A stretch of DNA of 64,000 bases from Escherichia phage 235Ecol030PP: the sequence record PP355091.1; one strand, 5' to 3'. Positions 41,800-42,612 of this stretch are shown here, piece after piece. How positions within the stretch are numbered: position 1 is the stretch's first letter; each line of letters begins with the position of its first letter. A program made the position numbers and the translations under genes. Under the pieces are notes generated by a model, which ran no database searches, was not told the DNA's origin, and worked only from the letters and a program-made list of their open reading frames with translations.

Positions 41800-42084
41800 T
41801 TACAAAAGATTTTTAGCAATAATTTTAAGCTGAGCTACTGAAATATGCTTGGCTTTAAACAAAGCAGTTTCTTCAGCAGGGGAGATAATGATTGTAGCAC
41901 CATCTTTCTTAGCGGACCATCCATCACCCAGGTAAACAGTACCTTTAACTTCTTCGCCATCAACCAGGCTAATCATCGGTTTACCTTCACGTCCTTTGTT
42001 TGCTTTAATAACTTCAGAAGTAAGGGTCGCTTCAGTCAAAGTAGAAGCGTTAGTGGTTGAAGTGAATTCTTGATAAGTTTTCAT
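41800..42084 (-). CDS. ipI: Internal protein I (packaged head protein; anti-restriction in T4)
   Basis: 94 aa; CTS leader MKTYQEF; position upstream of 57B as in T4. Confidence 0.8.
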   Translation of the reverse strand: MKTYQEFTSTTNASTLTEATLTSEVIKANKGREGKPMISLVDGEEVKGTVYLGDGWSAKKDGATIIISPAEETALFKAKHISVAQLKIIAKNLL

Positions 42085-42104
42085 TTTATTTTCCTAATTA
42101 ATTT

Positions 42105-42134
42105 TGATGAGGTAATAGTATCACTACCTCATCA
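42105..42134 (-). promoter_or_regulatory. T4-type early promoter upstream of ipI
   Basis: -35 GTTTACA (42128-42134), 17-nt spacer, -10 TACTAT (42105-42110). Confidence 0.6.
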
Positions 42135-42156
42135 GCATGTAAACAACTTTGTGAAA

Positions 42157-42612
42157 TTATTTTAAATCATCTGCCCAATCGAATTTAAGAGGCTCTTTGT
42201 ATTCACGATCTAATACGACCGGAATTTGTACATCACCGCTAAATGATAAGGGCCCAACATTATAAGACAATGTTATATGCGGTGTGTAATCATCAAAATC
42301 ATGTGTAGCACCTAGTGCCCGCGCATACATGTGTCGACAACGCAAATATTCAGAATCTAGTACAAGTACAAGAGTCGATCCATCTTGTGTTTTCCATACT
42401 TCTAAATGCCCGGAAGAAGCTACTTCAAAACTTCCGCTTGATGGAACATACGGAACATTTACTCTTGAATAACATATGGTCGAATGAATTTTTTCTCTAG
42501 GAACTGGATTAGGAACACGTAAAGAGCGCTGAAGTTCTTCCAGCGCATCAAGTGTTAATTCTGAAAACTTAGCTGCTACATAAAGACCCGTTGAAAAGTC
42601 TTTAAATTCCAT
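42157..42612 (-). CDS. 57B: 57B / Acb1-like 2H phosphoesterase (anti-CBASS cyclic-nucleotide phosphodiesterase in T4)
   Basis: 151 aa; two H-x-T/S motifs (HSTICY, HITLSY) typical of 2H phosphoesterases; position between ipI and 57A. Confidence 0.75.

Follow-up and report, generated by a model that had tools for sequence, protein, structure and literature searches.

Two proteins of phage T4 provide the closest described systems for the locus analysed here. The product of T4 gene 57B, Acb1, was found as a 3'3'-cGAMP-cleaving enzyme through activity-guided fractionation; T4 Δacb1 lysates have no 3'3'-cGAMP cleavage activity, and the H44A/H113A mutant is inactive (PMC9117128). Acb1 acts by a metal-independent, two-step mechanism via a cyclic phosphate intermediate, its tetrad (H44, T46, H113, T115) was defined by Hobbs et al., and a lid, residues 145-152 in the Acb1 of Erwinia phage FBB1 (crystal structures PDB 7T26 and 7T27), closes over the ligand (PMC9117128). 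In a 2025 transposon screen, 57B mutants lost fitness on a CBASS host (bioRxiv 10.1101/2025.11.20.689424). The other protein, internal protein I (IPI), is injected and inhibits GmrSD, a type IV restriction enzyme; Ip1, Ip2 and Ip3 differ in the GmrSD variant that they block and do not cross-protect. About 300-360 copies of T4 IPI are packaged and injected with the DNA, and the capsid targeting sequence of such proteins comprises 10-19 residues resembling MKTYQEFIAE, with the cleavage motif L/I-x-E (PMC9026906). Published work describes the ip1 locus as polymorphic and as a hotspot for anti-restriction proteins that are injected (bioRxiv 10.1101/2025.11.20.689424, PMC9026906), and a newly reported McrBC inhibitor, Bas37_0260, occupies the same slot in phage Bas37 (bioRxiv 10.1101/2025.11.20.689424).

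Here, we analysed 64,000 nucleotides (the window) of Escherichia phage 235Ecol030PP (record PP355091.1), a Tequatrovirus (T4-like coliphage), and compared its ip1 locus with the same locus in T4, T2, T6 and RB69. The segment almost certainly represents two characterised T-even counter-defence genes, 57B/acb1 and ipI, at their ancestral positions, with ipI in a cassette slot. Sequence identity, motifs, gene order and module structure were observed directly, and near-identity to the T4 proteins suggests the corresponding activities. All genes of this stretch lie on the minus strand and are transcribed in the order gene 1, 57A, 57B, ipI, four small ORFs, seven tRNA genes, a segB-like endonuclease gene and tRNA-Arg, which is also the order in T4 (Table 1). 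The region 40300-43600 matches phages G2540, RB27, phiD1 and many others over its full length at 92-94% identity. As the first-pass annotation had stated, ipI is the gene directly downstream of 57B, and both ORFs lie where it had placed them; they are on the minus strand, with a 72-nt spacer between them. Plus-strand ORFs that overlap these genes (e.g. 41845-42060) were rejected as real genes, because the minus-strand products match protein families and structures over their full length.

Table 1. Features of the ip1 locus and of the second ip locus of phage 235Ecol030PP (positions within the window)
Feature	Position	Strand	Evidence or remark
gene 1, dNMP kinase	42842-43567	(-)	Pfam DNMK, E=4e-106
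57A, tail-fibre chaperone (context, not a defence gene)	42612..42842	(-)	Pfam GP57, E=1.5e-48
57B/acb1, 151 aa	42157-42612	(-)	Pfam PF23474 Acb1; T4 alignment
promoter/RBS module before ipI, 72 nt	42085..42156	(-)	promoter scan, module comparison, folding
ipI ORF, 94 aa	41800-42084	(-)	Pfam PF11634 IPI_T4
ipI propeptide (capsid targeting sequence)	42031..42084	(-)	alignment to T4 IPI; 2jub start
mature IPI*, 76 aa + stop codon	41800..42030	(-)	Pfam IPI_T4, PDB 2jub
second promoter-module copy, before trna.4	41724..41799	(-)	promoter scan, module comparison, folding
trna.4, 61 aa	41538-41723	(-)	phrog_1692
trna.3, 126 aa	41156-41536	(-)	phrog_1411
trna.2, 96 aa	40863-41153	(-)	phrog_2023
171-aa ORF	40343-40858	(-)	without T4 or T6 counterpart
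seven tRNA genes	39685-40256		
segB-like GIY-YIG endonuclease	38978-39643		between tRNA-Arg and the other tRNA genes
Ip5-like	33042-33323	(-)	phrog_3499
86-aa ORF, variant leader MKMYQEFIVE	32612-32872	(-)	
IPIII-like, 192 aa, leader MKTYQEFIAE	31972-32550	(-)	phrog_5341

The tRNA cluster at the downstream end of the stretch (38899-40256) holds eight genes (Arg, Met-CAU, Thr, Ser, Pro, Gly, Leu and Gln) and is split by the segB-like GIY-YIG homing endonuclease gene, as it is in T4. The CAU tRNA is called 'Met' by ARAGORN, whereas the T4 record has it as tRNA-Ile.

The product of 57B had been proposed to be an Acb1-like 2H phosphoesterase with two H-x-T/S motifs, and this description was borne out. 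It matches the Pfam family Acb1 (PF23474) at 200.8 bits (cut-off 27; E=1.1e-59) across profile positions 1-144 of 144, aligns with the FBB1 Acb1 structure (PDB 7t26, E=1.3e-61) at both HxT motifs, and is identical to T4 57B/Acb1 (NP_049750) at 150 of 151 residues. The alignment with T4 Acb1 showed that the catalytic histidines are retained. The tetrad consists of H43-S-T45 and H112-I-T114, where H43 and H112 correspond to T4 H44 and H113 and the two motifs align to HTT and HIT of 7t26; the numbering is one lower than in T4 because the T4 record begins one methionine earlier. T4 Acb1 thus shares with its counterpart in 235Ecol030PP the HxT/HxT tetrad, the position directly after 57A and, when the extra annotated methionine is ignored, the length. 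That methionine reflects the 57A/57B junction, which is TAATG in 235Ecol030PP but a four-base ATGA overlap in T4, leaving the additional N-terminal residue annotated in T4 57B without a counterpart. Because the start ATG of 57B overlaps the 57A stop codon in TAATG, 57B is probably translated last in a 1-57A-57B block. The 57A products themselves have 76 aa in 235Ecol030PP and 80 aa in T4.

The sole difference between the two Acb1 proteins is a leucine-to-phenylalanine change at residue 144 (T4 residue 145), where T4, T2, T6 and P8, which encode one identical 57B sequence, all have leucine in our alignment. This L144F substitution is a conservative hydrophobic change at the first residue of the C-terminal lid segment, which is present and otherwise matches that of T4. 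Given 99% identity to the assayed T4 protein, we infer that 57B of 235Ecol030PP would cleave CBASS cyclic oligonucleotides.

The assignment of ipI to the anti-restriction protein IPI likewise held on alignment, which gave 90% identity to the T4 product. Residues 19-94 match Pfam IPI_T4 (PF11634) at 171.5 bits (cut-off 25; E=3.5e-51) over profile positions 1-76 of 76, and 72 of the 76 residues of the mature protein are identical to those in the NMR structure of mature IPI* (PDB 2jub, E=1e-42). Relative to T4, the four substitutions in the mature part are V46/I, I66/V, V83/A and Q85/H (235Ecol030PP first), and the mature protein is basic (pI 9.0). The packaged-protein leader noted in the first-pass annotation was found as an 18-residue segment, MKTYQEFTSTTNASTLTE, which opens with MKTYQEF, closes with L16-T17-E18, an instance of the gp21 prohead-protease motif L/I-x-E, and is followed by the exact N-terminus of mature IPI*, A19 being residue 1 of the solved protein. 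T4 IPI has the same N-terminal MKT..EF leader, the same processing site (x-T-E followed by ATLTSE), and its gene likewise occupies the slot flanked by 57B and trna.4; however, the T4 propeptide has 19 residues rather than 18, with several substitutions. By analogy with the T4 literature, IPI of 235Ecol030PP would be packaged, injected and inhibitory to GmrSD of the CT596 or Eco94 type. For the glucosyl-hmC modification genes and the gp21 context in which it would act, we rely on the Tequatrovirus assignment as an assumption.

The ipI allele differs from its surroundings in its history. Compared with T4, the ipI ORF has 86.5% nucleotide identity (dS 0.62, dN/dS 0.08), whereas 57B has 97.8% (dS 0.09) and trna.4 has 98.4%, and the drop in identity starts and stops at the ORF borders. 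This difference from flanks at 98% marks a separate ipI allele lineage. In the comparison with RB69, which belongs to another genus, the pattern is reversed: ipI is 87% identical and 57B only 74%. Since the identities of ipI and its flanks are thus opposite in the two comparisons, the history of ipI is decoupled from that of the flanks, and the mosaic patch indicates cassette exchange across genera, presumably through conserved modules. The allele is deeply diverged, yet strong purifying selection acts on the IPI protein. An ipI allele identical to that of 235Ecol030PP is present in phage G4507.

The comparison across the five phages defines the slot itself. Both 57B and trna.4 are constant in T4, T2, T6, RB69 and 235Ecol030PP, and the interval between them is variable: it holds ipI alone in T4 and 235Ecol030PP, ip5 and ip7 in T2, two other ip genes in T6, and ipI with an ip7-like gene in RB69, so that T2, T6 and RB69 have two ip cassettes where 235Ecol030PP has one. 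In T4, T2, T6 and 235Ecol030PP, each ip gene stands behind the same module and begins with MKT[YF][QK]EF, yet the mature parts are unrelated. The alternative cassettes directly downstream of 57B (T2 ip5 and ip7, the two T6 ip genes and Bas37_0260) share the promoter/RBS module and leader of ipI, but their mature domains are unrelated to IPI by sequence, and such targets as have been reported differ from that of IPI. In RB69, a diverged copy of the module precedes the upstream ip gene, and ipI has a spacer of only 34 nt and an extra MEPK ahead of its leader. Among 50,697 phage records, 57B-like DNA was found in 1032 and ipI-like DNA in only 285, and at least 80% of the trna.4-ipI-57B stretch was covered in only 250 of 1049 records.

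The modules that precede ipI and trna.4 (72-76 nt) are near-identical and run TTTCACAAAGTTGTTTACAT…GTGATACTATTACC… and then a ribosome-binding site. The ipI module contains TTTACA, a 17-nt spacer and TACTAT with an upstream TG (42143..42115), followed by the ribosome-binding site AGGA, and is predicted to be early-promoter-like; that of trna.4 has TTTACA, a 17-nt spacer and TACTAT (41780..41752), the ribosome-binding site GAGGAG and a hairpin of its own. In the promoter scan, these were the only two promoter-like sites of the region to combine the -35 hexamer TTTACA with an extended (TG) -10 element. A search for the late-promoter motif TATAAATA immediately 5' of ipI gave no site in the spacer; on the minus strand, the closest sites are at 43205, 41422 and 41114. 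A third copy of the promoter core, GTTTACA…GTGATACTAT, lies on the minus strand at 20890-20919, about 21 kb from the ip1 locus.

Both modules also fold. The hairpin of the ipI module (42107-42134) has 13 bp, spans the -10 element and has a predicted energy of -17.4 kcal/mol (z=-3.7), and that of the trna.4 module lies at 41740-41775 on the minus strand. Cassette hairpins were likewise found in the compared phage loci (L003:1130-1197, L004:1979-2054 and L005:2418-2494). Across the cassette modules, energies range from -17 to -21 kcal/mol with z-scores of -3.4 to -4.0, and none of 200 shuffled sequences folds as stably. In each, the loop and 3' arm contain the -10 hexamer, and no U-tract follows. 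The arms vary from module to module yet stay complementary (GAUGAGGUAGUG/UAUUACCUCAUC, AUAGGGU/ACCCUAU and GGAUGAUGGUG/CUAUCAUCC). RNA initiated at the promoter within the module would lack the 5' arm; formation of the hairpin would thus be confined to read-through RNA or single-stranded DNA.

A second ip locus adjoins the lysozyme gene e (33320-33808). It extends over 31972-33323 on the minus strand and contains three leader-bearing ORFs (Table 1); no T4-type ipII was seen there. Both ip loci together give 235Ecol030PP at least four candidate injected proteins.

Between the second module and the tRNA genes, the first-pass annotation had counted three unassigned ORFs at 40343-41723; there are four, namely trna.4, trna.3, trna.2 and the 171-aa ORF. 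The trna.4 product is hydrophobic (GRAVY 1.22), identical in amino-acid sequence to T4 Trna.4 (100%), and probably a two-helix membrane protein. The trna.3 product is acidic, and the gene, which is absent from T2, has 67.5% nucleotide and 63% amino-acid identity to T4 (dS ~1.1); beside trna.4 at 98% nucleotide identity, it presents as a replaced or fast-evolving accessory gene. Its homologues bear a precomputed PF26894 label, and its AF2 model (pLDDT 87) gave no meaningful fold match. The trna.2 product has 87% amino-acid identity to T4 Trna.2, which a DRT1 pull-down enriched together with one other phage protein (PMC13275509). The 171-aa ORF encodes an acidic protein (pI 4.6) that is found in T2, RB69 and P8, with no counterpart in T4 or T6. 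None of the four has a Pfam or NCBIfam match at E<=0.01, their comparison with PDB sequences gave chance hits only at E<=1, and no recognisable fold, nor any family, PDB or fold match to any defence, was found for them.

The functional assignments of 57B and ipI should be weighed against other readings. It is highly improbable that 57B is instead an RNA ligase, or a LigT-like RNA 2',3'-cyclic phosphodiesterase for RNA/tRNA repair, rather than an immune-signal nuclease. RefSeq does name the T4, T6 and RB69 orthologues 'RNA ligase', as does phrog_755 of PHROGs, and one record labels 57B 'RNA 2',3'-cyclic phosphodiesterase'; the 2H fold is common to 57B and LigT enzymes, and about 2 kb separates 57B from a group of eight tRNA genes. 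However, these names are fold-based transfers, and the PHROGs label is a name only. The dedicated family Acb1 covers 57B end to end and was its sole Pfam match at E<=0.01, with no LigT or 2'-5' RNA ligase family match, and a search of NCBIfam gave no match. T4 57B was isolated by its very activity as a 3'3'-cGAMP cleaver, which Δacb1 lysates lose (PMC9117128), and phages with insertions in 57B drop in abundance on a CBASS host (bioRxiv 10.1101/2025.11.20.689424). For ipI, the corresponding reading is that the product is a basic internal head protein for DNA condensation or head assembly only, the diverged allele being no GmrSD inhibitor. The basic mature protein and the ~300-360 copies per particle historically suggested a charge-neutralising role, and the allele is 86.5% identical to T4 DNA with four substitutions in the mature protein; nevertheless, RB69 ipI largely shares the variant pattern at these four positions, and we regard this reading as very unlikely.

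The description of the segment as a counter-defence locus stands for 57B and ipI, where the hotspot literature and the comparison with T4, T2, T6 and RB69 support it, and it fails in its count of the further ORFs. A somewhat less than even chance may be given to the view that acb1 and ipI are neighbours by inherited order without functional meaning, that there is no island, and that the four downstream ORFs are housekeeping or accessory genes. In keeping with this view, the stop-start overlap ties 57B to genes 57A and 1, which have structural and metabolic roles, promoters of their own precede ipI and trna.4, and no family, PDB or fold match ties the four ORFs to defence. Because 57B and ipI belong to separate transcription units, their adjacency is a matter of conserved synteny rather than of demonstrated co-regulation. 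On the other hand, all of the T-even phages examined carry injected anti-restriction cassettes in the slot beside 57B, and the literature calls the ip1 slot a hotspot (bioRxiv 10.1101/2025.11.20.689424). The downstream ORFs, moreover, are variably present and fast-evolving, trna.3 having 63% amino-acid identity to T4 beside flanks at ~99%, and Trna.2 co-purified with DRT1 (PMC13275509). That they vary in presence, diverge rapidly and have orphan folds is consistent with accessory or counter-defence functions. That one or more of trna.4, trna.3, trna.2 and the 171-aa ORF is an unrecognised counter-defence factor is possible, though we consider it rather unlikely. Among them, Trna.2 is the lead with experimental support, having co-purified with DRT1, a defence reverse transcriptase (PMC13275509).

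Taking 57B as Acb1 and ipI as an exchangeable anti-restriction cassette, we propose the following course of events. Translated last in the 1-57A-57B block, Acb1 would act as a metal-independent 2H phosphoesterase and cleave CBASS signals, so that the effectors would never be activated and abortive infection would be avoided. The ipI gene would be transcribed from its own early-type promoter module, and the N-terminal leader (MKTYQEF…) would direct IPI into the prohead core, where the gp21 prohead protease would cut the leader after L-T-E. Hundreds of copies of the 76-residue mature IPI* would then be packaged and injected with the DNA, and the injected protein would protect glucosyl-hmC DNA from cleavage by blocking the type IV endonuclease GmrSD. 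The position of ipI is one cassette slot: in related phages, other ip genes are flanked there by identical promoter and leader modules, and these permit exchange by homologous recombination.

Since both functions have been established experimentally for the T4 proteins, the finding on acb1 and ipI is in itself already known, and newer GenBank records already read 'anti-CBASS protein Acb1' and 'internal protein I'. Its value for annotation lies in the many records that keep 57B as 'RNA ligase' or 'hypothetical protein'. The residual interest concerns the four orphan ORFs and the target ranges of the two proteins, IPI with its diverged allele and Acb1 with its lid substitution; that either of these changes shifts the target range is a lesser possibility. 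As candidates for host-specific knock-out screens, the four orphan genes are plausible, though unproven. If they do include a counter-defence factor, a compact anti-defence island would extend over 2.3 kb, from 57B to tRNA-Gln. For T-even phages more broadly, the shared promoter and leader module around interchangeable ip genes may serve as a cassette rule by which new injected anti-restriction proteins can be sought in their genomes.
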